Part shown: in pieces, positions 36,281 to 55,623 of the stretch
Layout of the letters: each line of letters begins with the position of its first letter
Numbering within the stretch: position 1 is the first letter of the stretch
Origin: a virus
Length of the DNA stretch: 64,000 nt
Strand: one strand, 5' to 3'
IMG/VR virus record: IMGVR_UViG_3300009130_001466
Location: 48,802 to 112,801 of that record
Translations under genes and position numbers: made by a program
Notes under the pieces: generated by a model
Seen by the model: only the letters and a program-made list of their open reading frames with translations
Told to the model about the DNA's origin: nothing
The model's database searches: none

Positions 36281-36355
36281 TAAGTCGCTGACAGTCAACG
36301 ACTTACGGGGCCGAGGCCGCCCCGCGCGCGTAAGTGCTTGATACTCAACGACTTA
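36281..36355. repeat. 75-bp double-palindrome element, copy 1
   Basis: TAAGTCGCTGACAGTCAACGACTTA + 25-bp GC core + TAAGTGCTTGATACTCAACGACTTA. Confidence 0.95.
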
Positions 36356-36436
36356 CGACACGAAAAAAACTTTAAAAAACTTAAAAAAACTTTGCGATAA
36401 GCTTGACTTGCCACTTCTTTAACCTATACTGTAAGC

Positions 36437-36616
36437 ATGATTAAATATAACGAATTGCACGACCTCTCTTGCCAATACTGGGATGCTCTTGACCGCCAAG
36501 ATTATGACTGGGCTGACTTCATCGACTCATGCCTTGAGCGTGAAGGCGTGGAGCGTCTTCCTCGCGAAGATTGCGAAGAGCCCATCCTTGACCTTTCTCC
36601 TCTCGAAGTAAACTAA
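36437..36616 (+). CDS. small acidic early protein
   Basis: Not in the track. MIKYNELHDLSCQYWD..., after TTGACT/TATACT. Confidence 0.65.
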   Translation: MIKYNELHDLSCQYWDALDRQDYDWADFIDSCLEREGVERLPREDCEEPILDLSPLEVN

Positions 36617-36620
36617 CCAA

Positions 36621-36956
36621 ATGACGATTATGACAAAAGCAATACTAGTAGACCCTTTTCTCCCCGCGATCTCAACTGTTGAGGTTGACGGGTTCGAAGA
36701 TATCCAACGCATGATCGATTGCCGCTGCTTTACTTGTGTGAGGTTTCCCGATGGCAAGCATGTCGCATACATTGACGACGAAGGATTAATCAATGGTACG
36801 CAAAGAGGCGTTAGGTTTATCGACAAGATTTACCCCGATGCCTTAGCTGGTCGCGTTCTTATCCTTGCCGACGACGGGCAAGGTGGCGACGCTGACTGCG
36901 AGCTGACAGGCGCTGATATCCAAGCGATGATAAAAGGAATCGTGGAATTCGGATAA
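36621..36956 (+). CDS. DUF3846-like protein
   Basis: KAILVDP...IQRMIDC...YIDDEGL...LAG. Confidence 0.6.
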   Translation: MTIMTKAILVDPFLPAISTVEVDGFEDIQRMIDCRCFTCVRFPDGKHVAYIDDEGLINGTQRGVRFIDKIYPDALAGRVLILADDGQGGDADCELTGADIQAMIKGIVEFG

Positions 36957-36972
36957 AAAAGCTTGACACCCG

Positions 36973-37047
36973 TAAGTTGCTGATTATCAACGACTTACGG
37001 GCCCAGGGCCGCCCGCGCCGCGCAAGTGCTTGATAACCAAGGACTTG
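36973..37047. repeat. 75-bp double-palindrome element, copy 2
   Basis: Boxes at 36973 and 37023. Confidence 0.95.
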
Positions 37048-37122
37048 CGTAATCTAAAATAAAAAACAAAAAAGTTTCCAAAACGCTTGACAACCACACA
37101 AAATTTCCTATTCTATAAGATA

Positions 37123-37305
37123 ATGAAAGACACAAACAAATTAATCACCGAAGTAATCGACCACCTAACTTTTTCTAGCTATGCTCACAACCGCAAGCTA
37201 AATCCCGAAATCTCACCTTCTCGTTGGGGCAAGATCTACGGAGAAAAAGAAGTTGTTTTAATGGAAAAAACTTTCCAAAATACCTTGACAACCGCAAAAA
37301 AATAA
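37123..37305 (+). CDS. small early protein (paralogue of 35419..35598)
   Basis: VIDHLT.SY...RKL.PEI..SRWGK.YGE shared. Confidence 0.75.
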   Translation: MKDTNKLITEVIDHLTFSSYAHNRKLNPEISPSRWGKIYGEKEVVLMEKTFQNTLTTAKK

Positions 37306-37768
37306 TCATACTGTATAACATGAACATTAGAAAAGAAATTAAAGTCTCATCAATTCTAACCGACGAAGTATTGCGTCAACAAAAAGAGTTAATCTCTAAA
37401 GGCTTTCAGCACGTCAATAACATTAAAAATGGTCGTCTTTCGGATGGTTACACAATGATTTTTGTTAAACAAGGGTAATAATATGAAAATTTGGGAACTT
37501 TTAACTCTGGTGCTTTTTGGACTCATTCTTGGGTTGGCAATGTTTGTCGGGCTTAAGCTCGACGACAAAGCTCAACAAACGAAAGAAGCGACATGGGAAC
37601 GCTTCGAGGAAATCGACAACGCAATCAAATAAAATGAAAATAACTATTGACAAAACAACTGCAATTTGCTTGACAGTCGCGGCTTGCACTTACTTCATCG
37701 CAAATAAAATTAGCTGGTTTCAAAAAATGTTTGACACTGTCTCAGGGGTTGCGATAAACTCAATCATG

Positions 37769-37843
37769 TAAGTGCTTGAATATCAACGACTTACGGGGCC
37801 AGGGCCGCCCGCGCCGCGCAAACCCTTGATAAACAACGACTTA
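37769..37843. repeat. 75-bp double-palindrome element, copy 3
   Basis: Boxes at 37769 and 37819; the first TAA is the stop of ORF 37634..37771. Confidence 0.95.
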
Positions 37844-37904
37844 CGCAACTAAAAAAAAGAAAAAGACTCTTGACAACCGCACAAAAATAACCATCATACA
37901 AACT

Positions 37905-38237
37905 ATGAAACCACTAAGCAAAACACTGACAGAACTAGGGATTGCATTTAGCTTTCCTATTGAGATTAAAGACGCTAATGGCAAGCCGACTTACCGAGAG
38001 TACAGCGATGGCTACTGGTATAAGTTTGAGTATGATGACAATAATAAAATAACTTACTGCAAGAATAGTCATAACTACTCGTATAGGTGTCAGTATGATG
38101 ACAATGGCAACAGGAATTACTTCGAGGACAGCAATGGTCTCCGAGAAGGTGCGCCACGTCCAGCCAAATCAACTAATACCTGCGAAGGCAAGGTTGTCGA
38201 AGTGGACGGGATCAAATATAAATTAACAGCACTATGA
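37905..38237 (+). CDS. short YD-like repeat protein
   Basis: EYDDNNKITY and QYDDNGNRNYFEDSNG repeats. Confidence 0.65.
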   Translation: MKPLSKTLTELGIAFSFPIEIKDANGKPTYREYSDGYWYKFEYDDNNKITYCKNSHNYSYRCQYDDNGNRNYFEDSNGLREGAPRPAKSTNTCEGKVVEVDGIKYKLTAL

Positions 38238-38665
38238 AAAAATTAATCTTACTAACATTCGCCATCTGCGCATCAATAGCACAAGGCGCGACATTAACTG
38301 ATTTAATTGTTGCTTTAGAAAAAGTGGAAAGCAATTGCAATCCTTCCGCTTATAACGAAAGCGAAAAAGCGTTAGGCTCTCTTCAGATTAGACCTATCAT
38401 GTTGGCTGATTATAATCGCATCTATGGCACGAATATAAAGCACAAGCAAATGTCAAACCGCTTGACTTCCCATAATATCGCAATCGGAATCTTTCGTCAC
38501 TATGAAAAGTATATCAAACGTAATGGCGAAAAGTTAAATGCAAAACATCTTGCCTTCGTTTGGAATGGAGGAGGATCAGCTTGGAAACGGGTTGCAAATC
38601 CGAAAAGCGACAAAAAGCAAAAAAATCTAGAAATTTACTGGACAAAGGTCTCAAAGCATCTGTAA
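38234..38665 (+). CDS. secreted lysozyme-fold (SLT/i-type-like) muramidase
   Basis: Signal peptide MKKLILLTFAICASIAQG; VES catalytic Glu, GSLQI, WNGG. Confidence 0.7.
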   Translation: MKKLILLTFAICASIAQGATLTDLIVALEKVESNCNPSAYNESEKALGSLQIRPIMLADYNRIYGTNIKHKQMSNRLTSHNIAIGIFRHYEKYIKRNGEKLNAKHLAFVWNGGGSAWKRVANPKSDKKQKNLEIYWTKVSKHL

Positions 38666-38687
38666 GTTACTGGTATTCAACGACTTA
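38663..38687. repeat. solitary 25-bp palindrome box
   Basis: TAAGTTACTGGTATTCAACGACTTA; supplies the stop of the muramidase gene. Confidence 0.85.
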
Positions 38688-39058
38688 CGCAACAAAAAAA
38701 CTTTAATCTTTTTTCAAAATCGCTTGACAGCCTAACCTTTTTTCTTATTCTTTTTTAAGCATTAACAACATCACTTTATGATTGATAAACGAACAGAAAA
38801 ACAAATCAAGAGGCTCTTCTCGGTGGTAGTAGACGACTCACTCATGGACGCTGACTTTGAATATGTCCAAGCAGCTATTGCTTGCGTTCGTAAAGAGTGT
38901 GATCAAGTTGAAGAATACATGAAGGAGATGGATAGACTTGCTGATGAAGATTCTATATCTAACACAATATGAGACAATTCACCAACGGCGACACGGGCGA
39001 GGTCAAGACTATAGCTGAGGTCTTTGCCCTAATCCGCGAAGAGAGAGAAGGAGAGCCG

Positions 39059-39133
39059 TAAGTCTCTGACAGTCAACGACTTACGGGCCCAGGGCCGCGC
39101 CCGCCGCGCAAGTGCTTGATATACAACGACTTA
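39059..39133. repeat. 75-bp double-palindrome element, copy 4
   Basis: Boxes at 39059 and 39109. Confidence 0.95.
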
Positions 39134-39204
39134 CGCAACAAAAAAACTTTAATCTTTTTTCAAAATCGCTTGACAACCTCACCAAAATTCTTATTGTTTT
39201 AATT

Positions 39205-39387
39205 ATGACTACTACTGATTCCTTCTCTGATTCTTCTTTTGACCCTTGGGCTGACTTGTCCGAGGCCGAGTTCGCTGAGTTCGAAGCCGATATGTTGCGC
39301 GAGCAACAGGAGCGTGAAAGCGCCGAGGCGATGGCTCACGAAGCTCAGCTTGAGCGCGAGCTTATGGAAAGAGCCGACTTCCGCTAA
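39205..39387 (+). CDS. small highly acidic early protein
   Basis: MTTTDSFSDSSFDPWADLSEAEFAEFEAD; promoter upstream. Confidence 0.65.
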   Translation: MTTTDSFSDSSFDPWADLSEAEFAEFEADMLREQQERESAEAMAHEAQLERELMERADFR

Positions 39388-39396
39388 GGGGTTGCG

Positions 39397-39471
39397 CAAG
39401 CCCTTGACAGTCAACGACTTACGGGGCCGAGGCCGCCCCGCGCGCGTAAGTCCTTGATACTCAGCAACTTA
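39397..39471. repeat. 75-bp double-palindrome element, copy 5
   Basis: Boxes at 39397 and 39447; core identical to copy 1. Confidence 0.95.
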
Positions 39472-39639
39472 CAGAGGTTCCCGAAATTCATTTCGGGAAC
39501 ATACATAACTGCTTGATCATTAGATATATACGCTATTTGTCTTGTATTTGCGTTCGATTTGCGTTCGATTTGATTTGGCGCTATTTTTTTTCAAAAAAGG
39601 GTTGACTAATGCCCAAAACAATACATAATGTAAAACATA

Positions 39640-40068
39640 ATCGTTCTTTAACATTTTACAATTTAGACAAGCGAGTCCTAGAAGCTGGTAGATGAAATTG
39701 CTTTAGTAGGCTACCAAGGTTAAGCAAATCGTTTGTCTCTTATCTAACTCGAAGAAAGCCAGGTAAACAGCCGAGCATGGGGATCTGCTGGCAATGCGTC
39801 GAGGACAGCGTGGGGGTGCGTTGATAAGATTGATTAGTTAAACACCCTCAAGATTTAACCTCGCTTGGATGACGTCTGCCTTAGAAGGGCATCCCCAAGC
39901 CAACTGGATTCGCAAATAGCGAAGAGGGAGTTGCCACTGCTCTGAGGTTTTAACATTTTAAGCGGAGAATTTGAACGCTCGACCTAAACGCCTAAAGGGT
40001 TCACCCAAGCGGAAATGAGTCGAAAGACCGAGAGCGCCAACCAATTGAAACAGGTTATATCCGCACCA
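39640..40068 (+). ncRNA. boxA-led multi-domain non-coding transcript ending in a CCA acceptor-like stem
   Basis: Promoter TTGACT(39602)/CATAAT, boxA CGTTCTTTAACA, four helix-closed domains, no ORF. Confidence 0.65.
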
Positions 40069-40153
40069 ATCTAAAAAAACTATTGACAAAGCTCAACTTT
40101 TGTGATTTAATATAATCTTAACAATCGAAAATCCAAAACGGAGAAAAGAAAAC

Positions 40154-40405
40154 ATGAAAAACCTAAAACTAAATCCAATCCAAAAAACTCGCCTTGCTAT
40201 TCGTCGCGCTTTCGCTAAGAATAATATGGCTCAAATCACCTACAAGAAAAAGTCTGATGAGACTGTTGGCTCTTATGTCATTGACATGAATTTCATTGAA
40301 GACTTGGGCGATATGTTCAACACCTATTCTTACGCCACTGGCGCGAAGCACAGCGGCATCCGCTCCTTCTATAAAAACCGAATCGAAAAAATTAAACTTG
40401 TGTAG
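40154..40405 (+). CDS. WYL-like/SH3-fold small protein
   Basis: ITYKKKSDE...GIRSFYKNRI. Confidence 0.55.
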   Translation: MKNLKLNPIQKTRLAIRRAFAKNNMAQITYKKKSDETVGSYVIDMNFIEDLGDMFNTYSYATGAKHSGIRSFYKNRIEKIKLV

Positions 40406-40559
40406 CGTGATTGGTTAACGTGTGTGTGCCGCCTCGTCTTGTGGTTAGGGCGAGGCGGCTTAAATTTCTTTTGTTGTAGTCGTGTGCAACGTGTGTGTGC
40501 CGTCTTACCTTTTGTGTATGGGGTAAGGCGGCTTTTCGCTATATGGATCAAGAGTTCTG

Positions 40560-40634
40560 TAAGTCCTTGATGGTCAACGATTTACGCGGCGGGGGCCAGC
40601 GCAGACCCGCAAGTGCTTGATAATCAACAACTTA
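40560..40634. repeat. 75-bp double-palindrome element, copy 6
   Basis: Boxes at 40560 and 40610. Confidence 0.95.
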
Positions 40635-40706
40635 CGAATTCAAATAAATTTAAATAAATTTTTAAAAAGGGTTGACTCGTCGAATTAAATAATACATTAT
40701 ACTAAT

Positions 40707-40997
40707 ATGAAAATGACAAAAACAACTACAGAAAACCTCACCCTTGAAAACTCATTCGGAACAATCCGCGAAGAAAATGGAGTCCAGATGAATATATCCG
40801 TGCATGTCCAGCCAAACAAAAATTATGGTTCGTTTGAAATGTATGACGAAGAAACTGGAGGTGAAGAATGGTATGCCGAAGGAGGTCTTTGGTTTGAGGG
40901 CAAGGAACTGGTTGACTACGATGGAGTTTTTGCTCTATCTCCGTCAATTATTCAAATCTTAGAAGACAAAGGTTATGATGCTTCTTATGCAAAGTAA
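40707..40997 (+). CDS. hypothetical early protein
   Basis: Leaderless; GGLWFEGKELVDYDGVFAL. Confidence 0.7.
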   Translation: MKMTKTTTENLTLENSFGTIREENGVQMNISVHVQPNKNYGSFEMYDEETGGEEWYAEGGLWFEGKELVDYDGVFALSPSIIQILEDKGYDASYAK

Positions 40998-41035
40998 TAC
41001 TTGACTAATCACAAAAAATAATACATCATATCAAC

Positions 41036-41377
41036 ATGAAGAAAATAACCTTATCACTACACCGCAGCGAAGATGAACCTTTTGTTCAGAAATGGGAGGT
41101 CGCTCGCAAATGTGTTTTTGCTGTTCGGCTGAACGTAGAGCATATCGAATATCCACATATTCCGTCAAAGCTTGCTGAGCTTTTGTTTCACGTTACTAAC
41201 GCGCCGACCGAGCTTATCACTAAAACACACGAAAAAATTCTTTTGGCTCTGTGGGAAAACTGCTCGGACAAGAGAACCTTTCACTCTACAAGTGTCGGAG
41301 ATGTCGTTAAGATCTGTGATTGTAACGGACACCCAACAACTTTAATGTGCAAATCAGTTGGATGGGAGGAGCTATAA
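41036..41377 (+). CDS. YodL-like domain protein
   Basis: LFHVTN...HSTSVGDVV...SVGW. Confidence 0.55.
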   Translation: MKKITLSLHRSEDEPFVQKWEVARKCVFAVRLNVEHIEYPHIPSKLAELLFHVTNAPTELITKTHEKILLALWENCSDKRTFHSTSVGDVVKICDCNGHPTTLMCKSVGWEEL

Positions 41378-41557
41378 TGACAATCGATCAAATAAATTCA
41401 TACTGCTACGAACATTACGAAGACGGCGGCGATATTGTAGTAGAGTGCATGGAAGATGAAGAGAAGCTCAAACGTTTTGAAACTTTGGAAGACCTCAGAC
41501 AATACATTGAGATACGCCAAGAGCATCGCCGAGAAATTGAATCAACCATTTGGTAAT

Positions 41558-41905
41558 ATGAAAGTAAGAGTATACAGAAACCTGCACAAAAAATGTTTTT
41601 CGGTTCAAGAGAAGACAGAAAAAGGCTGGCGAGTCAAACGCCACGCCACTTCTATCGTGCTTAAAAACGCCTCGTTTCGTGTTTCTGAAGCTGGACGCAA
41701 AAGAGTGTTAAAAGAAAAAAGAAAAAATGTTCACGCTTTTATAGAGGGCTATGAAATAAAAAACAGCACACAAAAACACAAGTGCGAAGTTTGTGTTAGC
41801 TACAATCCTTACAAGTGTGACCACTTTGAAACTAACTCCCACGATCCAGTTTTTTTTGCTCGACTCGCTCATGTTAATCTCTCAGGGTGCAAAATCCATA
41901 AGTAG
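41558..41905 (+). CDS. conserved phage protein of unknown function
   Basis: MKVRVYRNLHKKCFSV...VSEAGRKRVLKEKRKNVHAF. Confidence 0.7.
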   Translation: MKVRVYRNLHKKCFSVQEKTEKGWRVKRHATSIVLKNASFRVSEAGRKRVLKEKRKNVHAFIEGYEIKNSTQKHKCEVCVSYNPYKCDHFETNSHDPVFFARLAHVNLSGCKIHK

Positions 41906-41973
41906 TTGATATTCAACGACTTACGCGGCCGCGGCCGCCCCCGCGTCGTAAGTCCTTGATATTCAACGACTTA
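41899..41973. repeat. 75-bp double-palindrome element, copy 7
   Basis: Boxes at 41899 and 41949. Confidence 0.95.
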
Positions 41974-42123
41974 CGCAACTTTGACTGCTCTGGGGCTCAA
42001 GTTCCGTGCCAACTTTTTTTCTAATTATTTTTTTATTTTTTTGGTAAACGCTTGACACCACATTGATTTTCTCATATGATGTAATCTCACAATTAAATAA
42101 TAATACTATATAAAGTTAATACT

Positions 42124-42924
42124 ATGAACATCGAAAATACACACCCTGCAAATCAAGAACTCCTTCGCCTTAACGTGTGCGAATCAAAACAGTGCGACTT
42201 CTCTAAGGTTCAAGCTGTCTCTACTCCCGACGCTTCTGATCGTTGGACTCCTATCGCTCACGATGCTTTGGTTGGTCAATTCCGCGAGTCTATCGGCAAC
42301 ACTGATCTTGAGATCGTGAATGAGCATCACGCGTTGCACCGCTATGGTCAACGCTACTTTGGCTTGTTCCAAGTCAAGGGCGTAGGTCGCAAGCATGGCG
42401 ATGACGTTGGCACTGTTATGTGTCTTCGCAATTCTCACGATAAGGCTTTCCGCGCTGGCATCTCTGCTGGTGATGCGCCTTTCGTTTGCTCCAACTTGAT
42501 CTTCTCTAACGAGATCGTGCTTGGTCGCCGCCATACTACTCACATCATGCGCGACTTACCGCAAATCATTTCACGTGCGATTGGTCAACTTATGGAGTCT
42601 TGGATTACTACGGACAACCGCATTGACTCCTACAAGTCAACCGAGATTGATGATCGTGTGGCTCACGACTTAATCCTGCGCGGCTTTCAAGCTGGCGCGT
42701 GTGGCAAGACGCAAATTGCTGACATCTTCACACAGTGGCACAAGCCCGAACATGAGAACTTTGAGGGTCGCGACCTTTGGAGTCTTCAAAACGCCTTCAC
42801 GAACGTGTGGAGGGGCAACACGCTCAACACGGCGAACCGCTCAAGCTCGCTCTACTCCGTGCTTGACACCTTCGCGGCTCACGCCAAACCAGTTGAGGGC
42901 GAATTAGTTCTCAACGCTTCCTAA
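42124..42924 (+). CDS. DUF932-family protein
   Basis: PIAH, LRNSHD, FVCSNL, RRHT, LWSLQNAFT. Confidence 0.75.
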   Translation: MNIENTHPANQELLRLNVCESKQCDFSKVQAVSTPDASDRWTPIAHDALVGQFRESIGNTDLEIVNEHHALHRYGQRYFGLFQVKGVGRKHGDDVGTVMCLRNSHDKAFRAGISAGDAPFVCSNLIFSNEIVLGRRHTTHIMRDLPQIISRAIGQLMESWITTDNRIDSYKSTEIDDRVAHDLILRGFQAGACGKTQIADIFTQWHKPEHENFEGRDLWSLQNAFTNVWRGNTLNTANRSSSLYSVLDTFAAHAKPVEGELVLNAS

Positions 42925-42978
42925 CGGCTCTCGCCTCACCCTTCGGGGTGGGGCTTTTCTTTTTCTGCTTGACATTCG

Positions 42979-43053
42979 TAAGTGCTTGATAATCAACGAC
43001 TTACGCGGCCGCGGCCGCCCCCGCGTCGCAAGTCCTTGGTATTCAACGACTTA
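42979..43053. repeat. 75-bp double-palindrome element, copy 8
   Basis: Boxes at 42979 and 43029; core identical to copy 7. Confidence 0.95.
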
Positions 43054-43180
43054 CGCAACTTCTTTCACGCGCTGGTCGCTGAGCTTGTCAAGTCTTTTCT
43101 TTAGGTTTTTTTTGAAAAGTTTTTTTAATTTATTTTAAATATCGCTTGACTTGCGCGACAAATTCTCAGATAATGCTTTT

Positions 43181-43888
43181 ATGACTAAACTACTAAACAA
43201 CGGAAACTCGAAAACAATCAAAGGCGAAAAACTTGGATGGACTACTTTTGGTCTACACCTTGCGCCTTTTAACTTGGCTGGCAAAAATGTTTGCGCCCAT
43301 GCTTCGGCTGGATGCGCTGCTGCTTGTCTCAACACTGCTGGACGCGGCGCGATGTCGAATGTGCAAAAATCTCGCATTGCAAAAACACAAAAATTCTTTG
43401 CCGATAAAAATGCTTTCGTATGGCAACTTGCTAAAGAGATTAGCAACGCTGTTAAACTTTCCGCAAAAAAAGACATGAAGCCATGCTTTCGTCTCAATCT
43501 TACAAGCGATCTGCCTTGGGAAAACATAAAAGTTGAATCGCACGGAAAAAAGCTTTCGCTTATGGAGATGTATCCCGATGTGCAGTTTTACGATTATACC
43601 AAGTCTTTTCCGCGTATGCAAAAATATCTAAAAGGTGAAATGCCAAGCAACTATCATCTTACCTTTTCGCGTAGTGAATGTAATGACAACTTAGTTGACT
43701 TGGTTCTCAAGCTTGGCGGAAATGTCGCGGCAGTCTTTCGCAATGAGTTTCCTAAGTCTTGGAAGTCTGTGGAAGTTGTCAACGGTGACGAAACAGACTT
43801 GCGTTTTTTAGATGCGCAAAATAAAATTGTTGGACTTGTGCAAAAAGGACTTGCCAAGAAGGACGAAACAGGCTTTGTTATAGGCTAG
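43181..43888 (+). CDS. Gp88-like phage protein (radical-SAM-like Cys cluster)
   Basis: NSKTIK, CAHASAGCAAACL, RLNLTSD, FYDYTK, GDETDLRFLD. Confidence 0.75.
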   Translation: MTKLLNNGNSKTIKGEKLGWTTFGLHLAPFNLAGKNVCAHASAGCAAACLNTAGRGAMSNVQKSRIAKTQKFFADKNAFVWQLAKEISNAVKLSAKKDMKPCFRLNLTSDLPWENIKVESHGKKLSLMEMYPDVQFYDYTKSFPRMQKYLKGEMPSNYHLTFSRSECNDNLVDLVLKLGGNVAAVFRNEFPKSWKSVEVVNGDETDLRFLDAQNKIVGLVQKGLAKKDETGFVIG

Positions 43889-44104
43889 TAAATGATAATA
43901 ATTCTAACCCTCTTAATCTTCTTAATGATAACACTCAACCATGAATCCTACTGAACGATATAATCTAATCAAAAAAATCTGTGAAAGCAAAAATCAAATC
44001 AACTCGCACGGGCAACTGCCCACGACCGAAACCGACTTGCAAGACGAATTCTTACGCTTCCAAACTAGCGTCGAACCTCTTGCAACTAAACAAGACTCAA
44101 GGCT

Positions 44105-44248
44105 ATGGCAAAAAAGTTTCTTCCAAAACTTAGTCTTCGGCAGTTAGAAAAAACCGTTAGGAAAGGGTTAGGCTTAATGCCTTCCCGCCCCTTTCGCGAC
44201 CGCTCGAAATACAACCGCAAAAACAAACACAAAAAAACGTTAGACTAA
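44105..44248 (+). CDS. small basic protein with an ArfA-like C-terminal motif
   Basis: Not in the track. ...PSRPFRDRSKYNRKNKHKK. Confidence 0.5.
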   Translation: MAKKFLPKLSLRQLEKTVRKGLGLMPSRPFRDRSKYNRKNKHKKTLD

Positions 44249-44423
44249 AATGAACTACAGTAAAAAATTCGGCTTCTATAATCCTAAAACTAAAATTGCT
44301 CAAGTGTATGACGGCTCCAAGCGCACTCCAACTAATACCGTTGTAAATGGTAAGGTTGGCTTTAGCATACCAAAAATTTTTGTCGGTAAATGCTCGCGAG
44401 CGCAGTTTGATAAACTGATCTCA

Positions 44424-44542
44424 TAAGCGCTTGAGCTTCAACGACTTAGGGATCGGCTAGAATTCCCTAAGTCGCTGGTAGTCAACGACTTACGCGGCGG
44501 GGGCCGCCCCCGCGTCGTAAGTGCTTGATATAGAACGACTTA
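44424..44542. repeat. element copy 9 with an extra upstream box (three boxes)
   Basis: Boxes at 44424, 44468 and 44518. Confidence 0.95.
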
Positions 44543-44816
44543 CGCAACTTGCTCGCAGGAGACAGAGCGGGCTTTTTTTAAAAATAATAGTTGACAGAAC
44601 CATTTTTTTCGTTAGACTGTAGTCATGATAATCAAAAAAGATGACCTCCTCCGCCCCACTCGCAACCACGCTCGCACCGTCAAGGTAATGTTTACCTACT
44701 CTTGTGGGAAACTCGCCATGATCTACTGCCCTACTGTTGGGCGTGGCGATGTCAGGCACATCGACCTCTACGAAGGTTGGGCTATCGAGCGTGACGGGAA
44801 TCACGTCGGGACTGTG

Positions 44817-44891
44817 TAAGTCCTTGCTAGCCAACGACTTGTGGGGCGGGGGCCGCCCGCGACGCGCAACTCCTTGATATACAACAACTTA
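44817..44891. repeat. 75-bp double-palindrome element, copy 10
   Basis: Boxes at 44817 and 44867; the first TAA is the stop of ORF 44625..44819. Confidence 0.9.
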
Positions 44892-53426: not shown

Positions 53427-55526
53427 CTACCAGTTTTTGACGTAATTGATAACGTCAGATAGATCTTGATCTCCTCGACGCAAGCTTGTGCAGTTGGCAA
53501 GGCGTTTGATTAAAGGATATTTTTCGTTAAACTCTTTCACGGCTTCCTGCTCTTTTGTAATCTTTGGCTTAACTAAATCTAGGTCAGCTAGAACTCTTAA
53601 TTCTCCTTGAGCAGTATGTATATTGCTTCTTTTCCCAAAAACCTTTTTTAAATTTTTAATAATTTGATTAGAGGGCAATTCTTCAGAGGCTTTATCAACA
53701 AGATTAGAAACCGCTTTCCAATCATGCCCAAATTCATTATAAAGGTCGCGGTCTATCGCATTAAAATCAATCTTGTTTTGAATTGAGTTAGATTTTTTAA
53801 TCCAATCAGCATAAACATTTTCAAGTGGAATCCAGTTGGCTTTCTTTTCTACCTTCTTTAAAGCAGAAGAACGAATACCATATACTTCTTTAAAGTCGGG
53901 ATTGATGTCTTTTAATTCACTAATAAATCCCCTAGCTTTAGAAGGGCAATCTGATTCTAAAAACGCACTACCATCAATTTTTTGGAATTTGTTTGCGTAA
54001 TACCGAACGTAATAATACGTTTCGTTATCTGAAAAATCTTCGTTTTTAGCTTCCCAGAAATCGGCTTGCGAGTAATGATACGCATTGCCAAAAGAACCAA
54101 ATAACATCACATCACTACCTGCAAGTGGAGAACCAGATGACTTTTTTTGTGTTGTTTTCTTTGTTATCGTTCGCTCACATTCAGAGAGAAGTTTGACTTT
54201 GGTAGACTTCATCATTTTAAAACGATTGAGTGCATTATTTTTAGCCTCATCTGTTTCTGCGACAAGAACAACAGCCTCTTCGTTGTCAGCTAAGAAAGAC
54301 AAACGATTTGCGAGTGATCGAGGTGATACACCATCATCAATAATAAAAAATTTATCTTTTTTCGGGTAAAACATATCAGAATAAGAATAGCGGGGATTTC
54401 TAAATCCCAATTTACCATTACGATTATAAGAAACATTTGTTACTTTATAATTTTTCTTAAACAATGCAGAACTAACGAATTCGCCGCCAAATTTATTTTC
54501 GTCAAAATCCGCAGATACAGCTTTCTTAGAAAAATGTCTAGCATAAGTAGATATGACTGATAAATGTATTTTGGACGCTTCGTACAGACAATCGCAAGAA
54601 TCAAATTTTAATTTTAGTTGCGCTTTTAGAGCATTTGCGATTTTATCGGAAGCTTCTTTTAGCTTTTCAACAGTTTGATTGTTGTACTCTAAGGATTCAC
54701 GACTATGGTGCAATTTAAACTCACCAATTTCTGCTTTATATACTACCCCACGTACAAAGTTTTCGGGAGCATGATCGGTAACAGGGTACATTATGCCACC
54801 CATCAGAACGTAAGCTTTGTTACACTCTTCATTTTGAGACGAACGCCTCCAGTAATCCGTGTTTTCGTCAGTGAAATAATCAAAGGTGTCACAAGATATT
54901 TCCGCTTCGATATACTCAAAGGAGTCATTTTTAATGTTTAGATTGCCTTGTAGGTATCGAGAGAAATTTTTAAATTTTTTATTAAAATCTTCAATGTGTT
55001 GGTTTTCAATAGGCACTTGTATATAAATACCATTAGGTTCTTCAGAATTTTTCTCAGAGCAAAGGCGGCTTACAACTGTATCATCGTTTTCATCAACACG
55101 GATTGAATAAGATGTTTTAAAACCTTCGTTTACAGATATAACAATAAAAGAATCTGTGTACGATAAAGGAGCAAAACGTCCAATGCCAAAACCTCCAATT
55201 GAGTTGTTGCTACCACGTTTGGTTGATTTGCCATACTTGGTGTATAGACCCATCATATCTTCTTCGCTCAGACCTGTGCCGTAATCACGCACAATAAAGT
55301 TTGGCTCAATTTTTGTAGGTAATTGAATATCTATCTTCTTACCATTACTAACGTCAATAGCATTTGCGACGATCTCACGCATTGTTGCGAGAATAGTGTC
55401 GGAATAATTGTTGCGAAGCAGACTCGCGATATAACGCATATCTTCTGCATCAATAGAGCAAGATGCTGATTTAAGATTTGCGGATTGAGTGATGTTTTTG
55501 GTTTGGTTTGTAATTATCATGCTCAT
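53427..55526 (-). CDS. rIIA: rIIA-like protein (N-terminal GHKL ATPase)
   Basis: REIVANAID, VRDYGTGLS, YGKSTKR, IGGFGIG, SRESLEY. Confidence 0.85.
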   Translation of the reverse strand: MSMIITNQTKNITQSANLKSASCSIDAEDMRYIASLLRNNYSDTILATMREIVANAIDVSNGKKIDIQLPTKIEPNFIVRDYGTGLSEEDMMGLYTKYGKSTKRGSNNSIGGFGIGRFAPLSYTDSFIVISVNEGFKTSYSIRVDENDDTVVSRLCSEKNSEEPNGIYIQVPIENQHIEDFNKKFKNFSRYLQGNLNIKNDSFEYIEAEISCDTFDYFTDENTDYWRRSSQNEECNKAYVLMGGIMYPVTDHAPENFVRGVVYKAEIGEFKLHHSRESLEYNNQTVEKLKEASDKIANALKAQLKLKFDSCDCLYEASKIHLSVISTYARHFSKKAVSADFDENKFGGEFVSSALFKKNYKVTNVSYNRNGKLGFRNPRYSYSDMFYPKKDKFFIIDDGVSPRSLANRLSFLADNEEAVVLVAETDEAKNNALNRFKMMKSTKVKLLSECERTITKKTTQKKSSGSPLAGSDVMLFGSFGNAYHYSQADFWEAKNEDFSDNETYYYVRYYANKFQKIDGSAFLESDCPSKARGFISELKDINPDFKEVYGIRSSALKKVEKKANWIPLENVYADWIKKSNSIQNKIDFNAIDRDLYNEFGHDWKAVSNLVDKASEELPSNQIIKNLKKVFGKRSNIHTAQGELRVLADLDLVKPKITKEQEAVKEFNEKYPLIKRLANCTSLRRGDQDLSDVINYVKNW

Positions 55527-55598: not shown

Positions 55599-55623
55599 TA
55601 AGTCCTTGAAAAAGAACTACTTA
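55599..55623. repeat. solitary degenerate 25-bp palindrome box upstream of the rIIA promoter
   Basis: TAAGTCCTTGAAAAAGAACTACTTA. Confidence 0.55.

Follow-up and report, generated by a model that had tools for sequence, protein, structure and literature searches.

A repeated 75-bp double-palindrome element at gene-cassette boundaries in the early region of a marine metagenomic virus

What stands between the early genes of a phage, and does it do more than keep them apart? The question is raised by a 64-kb stretch of viral DNA (the window), the right-hand part of a 112.8-kb record that derives from marine metagenomes and is 83% complete (IMG/VR record IMGVR_UViG_3300009130_001466). In its early region (34-45 kb), made up of small plus-strand genes, a 75-bp element occurs ten times, each copy consisting of two 25-bp palindromic boxes around a 25-bp core of about 91% GC. 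On balance, we favour the reading that the element is a boundary and promoter-architecture module, similar to the promoter-early stem-loop (PeSL) cassettes of T4-type phages (Arbiol et al. 2010, PMC2839356), and that it is likely bound by a host DNA-bending protein.

The element and its family in viruses

Each box is an inverted repeat of an 11-bp half-site, and the two box starts lie 50 bp apart in all ten copies, which are repeated in direct orientation. An earlier note on this DNA had listed the ten starts and this exact spacing, and both proved correct; of the three lone boxes that it named, those at 38663 and 44424 are good copies, whereas that at 55599, with 3+3 mismatches, is weak. No box was found in the remaining 48.8 kb of the record. 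The cores supply 10 of the 12 20-nt stretches of the genome with at least 90% GC. Successive elements are 338-1489 bp apart and genes occupy the intervals, on which grounds a CRISPR array, already dismissed in the earlier note, was rejected. The box holds TAA and TGA in two of the three frames on both strands, and six upstream open reading frames (ORFs) use a stop codon within a box (37769, 38663, 39059, 41899, 44424 and 44817), their coding sequence directly abutting the element.

Core positions 10-13 read GGCC in all ten window copies, as had been noted before, and GGCC had been taken for the site that the element presents. Among 50-bp-class cores outside the window, however, only 24 of 62 carry GGCC at these positions, despite the loci having been fetched with a pattern that asked for it; the fixed-position GGCC is a local trait, confined to the window phage and its close kin. 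A reading of the core GGCC as a restriction site was rejected as well, because GGCC is neither avoided nor enriched genome-wide: GGCC and CGCG both occur at their expected levels in the record, GC-rich cores included. CCGG is missing from the whole 112.8-kb record (0 against ~126 expected), which looks like avoidance of a single restriction site.

The element belongs to a family. A first viral scan, with an exact pattern made from box and core, matched 38 viral stretches. The window and these loci together contain 411 boxes, against 2 in shuffled sequence, which excludes chance, and nearly every locus has multiple boxes. The perfect palindromic box alone was found in more than 120 further viral stretches among the matches listed, and 71 of these loci hold 517 boxes. 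The box-to-box distance is constant within a phage and falls into classes across phages, about 8 bp apart: 34, 42, 50-52 and 58-60 bp in the first set, with 50 bp the commonest, and 50 (135 pairs), 58 (49), 42 (16) and 48 bp (16) in the second (71 loci). Core length and GC content are kept across the family; the core sequence is not.

The loci of the first scan share DUF932, GP88-like, PhoH and sigma-like proteins and look like one broad phage lineage. Element arrays were also present on phage-like contigs that had been binned into bacterial metagenome-assembled genomes (MAGs; L040, L045, L049 and L051). The bin of L045 is labelled Enterobacterales, a label that gives no evidence of a host since the boxes are confined to two short contigs of that bin. 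Searches of cultured phages by megablast and blastn, with the region and with one element, returned no usable match; a 21-nt match in Cellulophaga phage phi19:1 was put down to chance, the box being absent from that record. We found no description of the element in the literature. Text searches for the motif turned up only a terminator table of phage DLP6, discussed below, and one predicted integration host factor (IHF) site in Dickeya, and broader literature searches yielded nothing on such repeats.

Box recognition and the candidate binder

Paired palindromes around a GC-rich core could in principle act in RNA, and one alternative, which we hold to be unlikely, is that transcripts fold at the core, with or without the boxes, and that the fold works as a terminator or attenuator, as a stabiliser or as a site for RNase III. 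It would then resemble PeSL stem-loops, which consist of poly-G followed by poly-C and act as terminators (PMC2839356). The core consensus is indeed a GC-rich dyad able to form a hairpin, possibly a short one of four pairs, and its paired positions never vary; cores of the 58-60-bp class are clean GC hairpins, each having a triloop and a short run of T. The boxes themselves, however, did not behave as hairpins when Watson-Crick counts between arms were compared, at each variable position, with within-locus shuffles. In the 411 boxes the counts equalled those of the shuffles (234 against 242 ± 7 for pair 4-22, 173 against 170 ± 7 for pair 7-19), pairing at the variable core positions was no commoner than chance, and box 1 against box 2, as in a long hairpin, gave z ≤ 0.1 at all 25 positions. 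This lack of covariation indicates that the boxes are double-stranded recognition sites for a protein, not conserved hairpins.

Orientation also speaks against an element that works in the transcript. In the window, folding is better for the non-coding strand than for that of the mRNA. The polarity of the element is constant within a locus whatever the gene strand, and in L021 13 elements keep theirs where gene direction reverses; box orientation, judged with a crude ORF caller and by AT skew, had no consistent link to gene strand. In the 58-bp class the polarity of the T run fits the gene strand in 17 cases and does not in 15. We found no compensatory change in any register, the tract 3' of the element is A-rich and not T-rich, and Rfam gave no match overlapping any element. 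Moreover, real intrinsic terminators already lie upstream of E6 and E8, in keeping with the earlier statement that the element is not a terminator, and boxes also occur in bacterial promoter regions. The metatranscriptome contigs all fall within cassettes and none bridges an element, these contigs being too short and sparse to inform on transcript ends. Within the 58-bp class we also observed loci (L157, L138, L164 and others) in which the core hairpins have constant GC stems and triloops that form reverse-complement pairs (TTC/GAA, GTA/TAC), as if the loop flips.

Which protein might recognize the boxes? Across the 411 boxes, no variation is seen at A2, A3 and T9 or at the positions that mirror them; variation is greatest at positions 4 and 6-8 and at their mirrors. 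The invariant positions of the half-site match the core consensus of IHF, whose known sites include lambda attP H', oriC and IHF-assisted promoters. This core consensus is present in 362 of the 411 boxes (88%), and 198 (48%) have the full consensus, for which we used WATCAA-N4-TTR and counted a match on at least one strand. In the window, 15 of the 23 full-consensus matches fall inside boxes, in agreement with the IHF likeness of half-boxes remarked on earlier. The half-site thus reads like the core of an IHF (DNABII) site, and by this likeness a host DNA-bending protein is the most likely binder. A Pfam search of 20 early or shared phage proteins gave no DNA-binding domain, and the record, 83% complete, has no HU or IHF gene.

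The distribution of the box in bacteria bears on the same question. In a scan of one genome per bacterial species, the perfect box was found in 26 stretches against ~0.3 expected, namely in Fibrobacter, Bacteroidota, Akkermansia and other Verrucomicrobiota, and Lentisphaerota, and also in phage contigs that had been placed in MAG bins. With up to three mismatches allowed, 11 sites were counted in Fibrobacter, 17 in Akkermansia muciniphila and 16 in a Verrucomicrobiales genome; the reversed-pattern control gave none in any of the three. Nearly all of these sites are intergenic, often between divergent genes. Two phyla (Akkermansia and Fibrobacter) have boxes upstream of dnaA, at distances of 109 and 144 bp; boxes also adjoin three RPA (plasmid-type Rep) replication initiator genes, and are found a few bases 3' of tRNA genes, next to integrases. 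Such settings are the classic ones of an architectural host factor, as known from IHF sites, and favour a host architectural protein as the binder.

Two further arrangements were seen in bacterial DNA. The box is paired with a second palindrome of inverted TGTTCC/GGAACA arms in Akkermansia (L052, L053 and L059) and with a related GGAACATTCC-type dyad in Fibrobacter (L047 and L054); the pair stands upstream of argS in L052 and L059 and upstream of very large ORFs in at least L054, and could be a conserved two-site control region. In most of a set of Bacteroidota loci (L039, L043, L046, L055, L057, L060 and L061), a perfect box followed by a T run lies a few bases 3' of tRNA genes and/or near integrase or helicase genes, which suggests the end of a family of integrated elements.

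Promoter context and cassette exchange

All ten window elements and the lone box at 38663 are followed, on the gene strand, by an A-rich tract and a sigma70-like promoter at a distance of 27-131 bp. In several cassettes the centre of box 2 is ~75-96 bp upstream of the predicted start, a further likeness to IHF sites. A comparable arrangement is found in a cultured phage. The same 11-mer occurs in Stenotrophomonas phage DLP6 (KU682439.2; L065-L095) 28 times in forward and 4 times in reverse orientation, against 1 in controls. The copies form direct tandem repeats at 25-bp distances, and about 15 intergenic units of DLP6 consist of two direct 25-bp repeats ending in the 11-mer, a terminator hairpin, a GCTTTA box and a -10 element. 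We take the GCTTTA box to resemble the MotA box of T4. The DLP6 units share with the window element the identical 11-mer, the intergenic position upstream of promoters and an adjoining GC hairpin, but their sites are direct and non-palindromic repeats with an A tract, and their hairpin is a real terminator with a T run, 3' of both sites. In the DLP6 paper the 11-mer is listed only as a flank of predicted terminators and the repeats are not discussed (PMC5349666). The promoter context in the window, together with the DLP6 units, leads us to read the element as upstream promoter and boundary architecture.

The likeness to PeSLs goes further than position. Both are repeated intergenic units in plastic early regions, both include the upstream gene's stop, a tract rich in A and T, a strong sigma70-like promoter and a dyad made of a G run and a C run, and in both small genes are shuffled by recombination between copies, which for PeSLs is homologous recombination (PMC2839356). 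PeSLs, however, have neither the conserved pair of 25-bp palindromes nor the fixed 50-bp geometry, and their stem-loop is often inside the promoter; the conserved part of the window element is a box that looks like a protein site and also occurs in bacterial chromosomes.

Gene order in relatives, as far as homology blocks reveal it, is permuted at elements, or cassettes are lost there. In the related locus L016 the DUF932 and GP88 cassettes stand in the opposite order; the block ends (41895, 42977, 43060 and 44816) are element edges, and E7 and E8 are the breakpoints of the swap. Homology blocks with L012 and L016 begin at E7, the collinear block of L012 ends at E9, and a block shared with L016 begins at 44816. 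Overall, 12 of 35 distinct block ends lie within 15 bp of an element, where 12.8% would be expected (p ~0.001). DNA contigs from other marine samples contain a joint inside two boxes (38676>37783) and another that falls on the first base of E7 (41383>41899). The region of the lone box at 38663 is 87% identical over 91 nt to box 2 and the promoter of E4 (family D13). Joints are also present in repeated promoter DNA (36031>37337 and 37859>39163, the latter after two elements), so that general homologous recombination between direct repeats suffices to account for them. Of the shuffling site suggested in the earlier note, the shuffling of cassettes at elements is supported by L016, the block ends and the joints, but ordinary recombination between repeats explains it. 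The features of the region are collected in Table 1.

Table 1. Elements, lone boxes and adjoining features in the window
Feature	Position	Strand	Context
E1, box-core-box	36281..36355		upstream ORF stop 36268; promoter -35 at 36403
A-rich tract and sigma70-like promoter 3' of an element (example)	36356..36430	+	layout repeated after other elements
E2	36973..37047		promoter -35 at 37087
E3	37769..37843		first TAA is the upstream ORF stop; promoter -35 at 37870
Lone box	38663..38687		stop of ORF 38234-38665; promoter -35 at 38724; contig joint within box
E4	39059..39133		promoter -35 at 39170
E5	39397..39471		core identical to E1 core; next promoter 39602
E6	40560..40634		two intrinsic terminators upstream (40428-40459, 40499-40532); promoter -35 at 40672
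E7	41899..41973		box 1 TAG ends ORF 41456-41905; promoter 42052
E8	42979..43053		core identical to E7 core; terminator 42933-42954 upstream; promoter 43146
Lone box	44424..44448		44 bp 5' of E9; stop of ORF 44250-44426
E9	44468..44542		promoter -35 at 44591
E10, most degenerate copy	44817..44891		stop of ORF 44625-44819
Weak lone box (3+3 mismatches)	55599..55623		73 bp upstream of rIIA-like gene (53427-55526, minus strand)

Other genes of the window encode a long tape measure protein, a terminase and an rIIA-like protein, and there is a tRNA cluster; the terminase is too distant from those of cultured phages for the virus to be placed. The best-covered metatranscriptome contig (run X16, depth 33) spans 40099-40419 and ends directly 5' of two strong terminators (40428-40532). 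The segment 40099-40532 may hold a highly expressed small gene or RNA.

Proposed role and rival explanations

We propose that the element acts as a module of double-stranded DNA, set between early gene cassettes to keep them apart. It stands after the end of one cassette, after the terminator where there is one, and upstream of the A-rich tract and promoter of the next. The palindromic form of the box is what would be expected for a protein that is dimeric or binds bidirectionally, and two such sites would be held at a lineage-specific distance, here 50 bp, by a stiff GC-rich spacer with dyad symmetry; the rigidity of the spacing suggests that it matters how two bends are placed with respect to each other. 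The resulting bent nucleoprotein structure would shape the upstream promoter DNA and insulate neighbouring early transcription units from each other. Since the units are directly repeated, they would in addition serve as substrates for homologous recombination that deletes, inserts or permutes cassettes. Anatomy, family, absence of hairpin covariation, bacterial sites, promoter context and rearrangements at elements were read from the sequences, whereas which protein binds, that it bends the DNA and how transcription is affected are what we infer. A protein-built DNA architecture had been suggested in the earlier note, and it gains support from the absence of covariation in arms and core, from boxes in bacterial promoter and origin regions, and from the fit of the half-site to the IHF core. 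In a stronger version, which we regard as distinctly unlikely, the paired sites and fixed GC spacer would adopt a defined nucleoprotein fold that goes beyond promoter architecture: it would be a boundary device, insulating early units, and also the place where phage recombination enzymes enter by preference. Excision and insertion would then act on whole cassettes of promoter and gene, and the system would be a functional counterpart of integron cassettes that relies on a host bending protein.

Several observations weigh against the module as we propose it. Taking all loci together, a strong consensus promoter lies within 160 bp of only 26% of elements, against 13% of control positions. Unlike known IHF sites, the boxes are palindromic, with mirrored inner motifs 3 bp apart, where a mirrored canonical IHF site would have them ~5 bp apart. 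The kinks of one DNABII dimer are ~9 bp apart, and our own reasoning from the lambda H' complex is that a single dimer could not use both arms in the textbook register; rather than one symmetric site, the box would fit a pair of sites that overlap and face opposite ways. The boxes are 65-92% conserved even at positions left free by the IHF consensus, which suggests a more specific binder. Near-perfect boxes are also patchy among bacteria (present in 10 of the 121 genomes sampled from one phylum and in 0 of 150 others from another class), which is odd for a housekeeping protein. Finally, the intergenic position of the elements may account for part of the block ends seen at them, and contig joints at repeats can arise from faulty assembly.

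Some of these points would suit a different binder. If the array were a set of operators for a regulator encoded by the phage rather than the host, such as a repressor that shuts off early transcription, then the restriction of the array to the early region, a half-site conserved beyond the IHF consensus, the patchy bacterial distribution and the shared proteins of what looks like one lineage would all be natural. We give this explanation about as low a probability as that of a folded transcript: bacteria also have the box upstream of housekeeping genes, dnaA and argS among them, where no phage context is present, the 11-mer recurs in the unrelated T4-like phage DLP6, and neither the 20 proteins tested nor the rest of the record, as far as HU and IHF genes are concerned, offered a candidate. 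Less probable again, and in our judgement quite improbable, is a dedicated recombination site or mobile element, comparable to integron attC, a miniature inverted-repeat transposable element or the repetitive extragenic palindromic (REP) sequences with their RAYT enzyme, whose cassettes a specific enzyme would move. Breaks and joints at elements, the six upstream ORFs that take their stop codon from a box, and the single boxes beside integrases and tRNA genes in Bacteroidota point towards it. Against it, the joints in repeated promoter DNA are those that homologous recombination predicts. The recombinase or HUH enzyme envisaged in the earlier note was not found in a search limited to Y1_Tnp (PF01797), which is absent from the record, and there was no recombinase among the proteins scanned. 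The 3-bp centre of the box is unsuited to the cores of tyrosine or serine recombinases.

The REP sequences merit comparison for another reason. In REP elements and bacterial interspersed mosaic elements (BIMEs) of enterobacteria, in particular the RIP/RIB subclass, GC-rich palindromes are combined with IHF sites at gene ends. The window element resembles them in being extragenic and in joining a GC-rich unit to IHF-like sites at gene ends, but the order is inverted, with the sites flanking the GC unit, the spacing is rigid and the context is that of a phage. It also has no GTAG/CGTC tag and no RAYT gene, and the missing Y1 domain and lack of hairpin covariation likewise separate it from REP/RAYT and IS200-type systems. 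There remains the idea of a programmed nick, a DNA-entry pause site or a sink for a nucleoid protein, which we consider very improbable. The clustering of the elements, their GC-rich core and a polarity that is constant per genome regardless of gene strand would agree with it; by our reasoning, however, ~20 sites are too few to titrate an abundant nucleoid protein, and no such role is needed to explain how tightly the elements are linked to promoters and cassette ends.

The plastic early regions of large phages hold most of their unknown genes, and how these regions are organized and exchanged is poorly understood. A conserved and rigid boundary unit that resembles a protein site and is shared by hundreds of contigs from uncultured phages would make it possible to delimit cassettes by their sequence. 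As a boundary and promoter module, the element suggests that a host factor is needed for early expression and offers a testable route for the exchange of cassettes, for a first test of which the cultured phage DLP6 is a suitable system. In Akkermansia, Fibrobacter and their relatives, the single boxes upstream of dnaA and at the ends of mobile elements point to an uncharacterized DNA-binding specificity.

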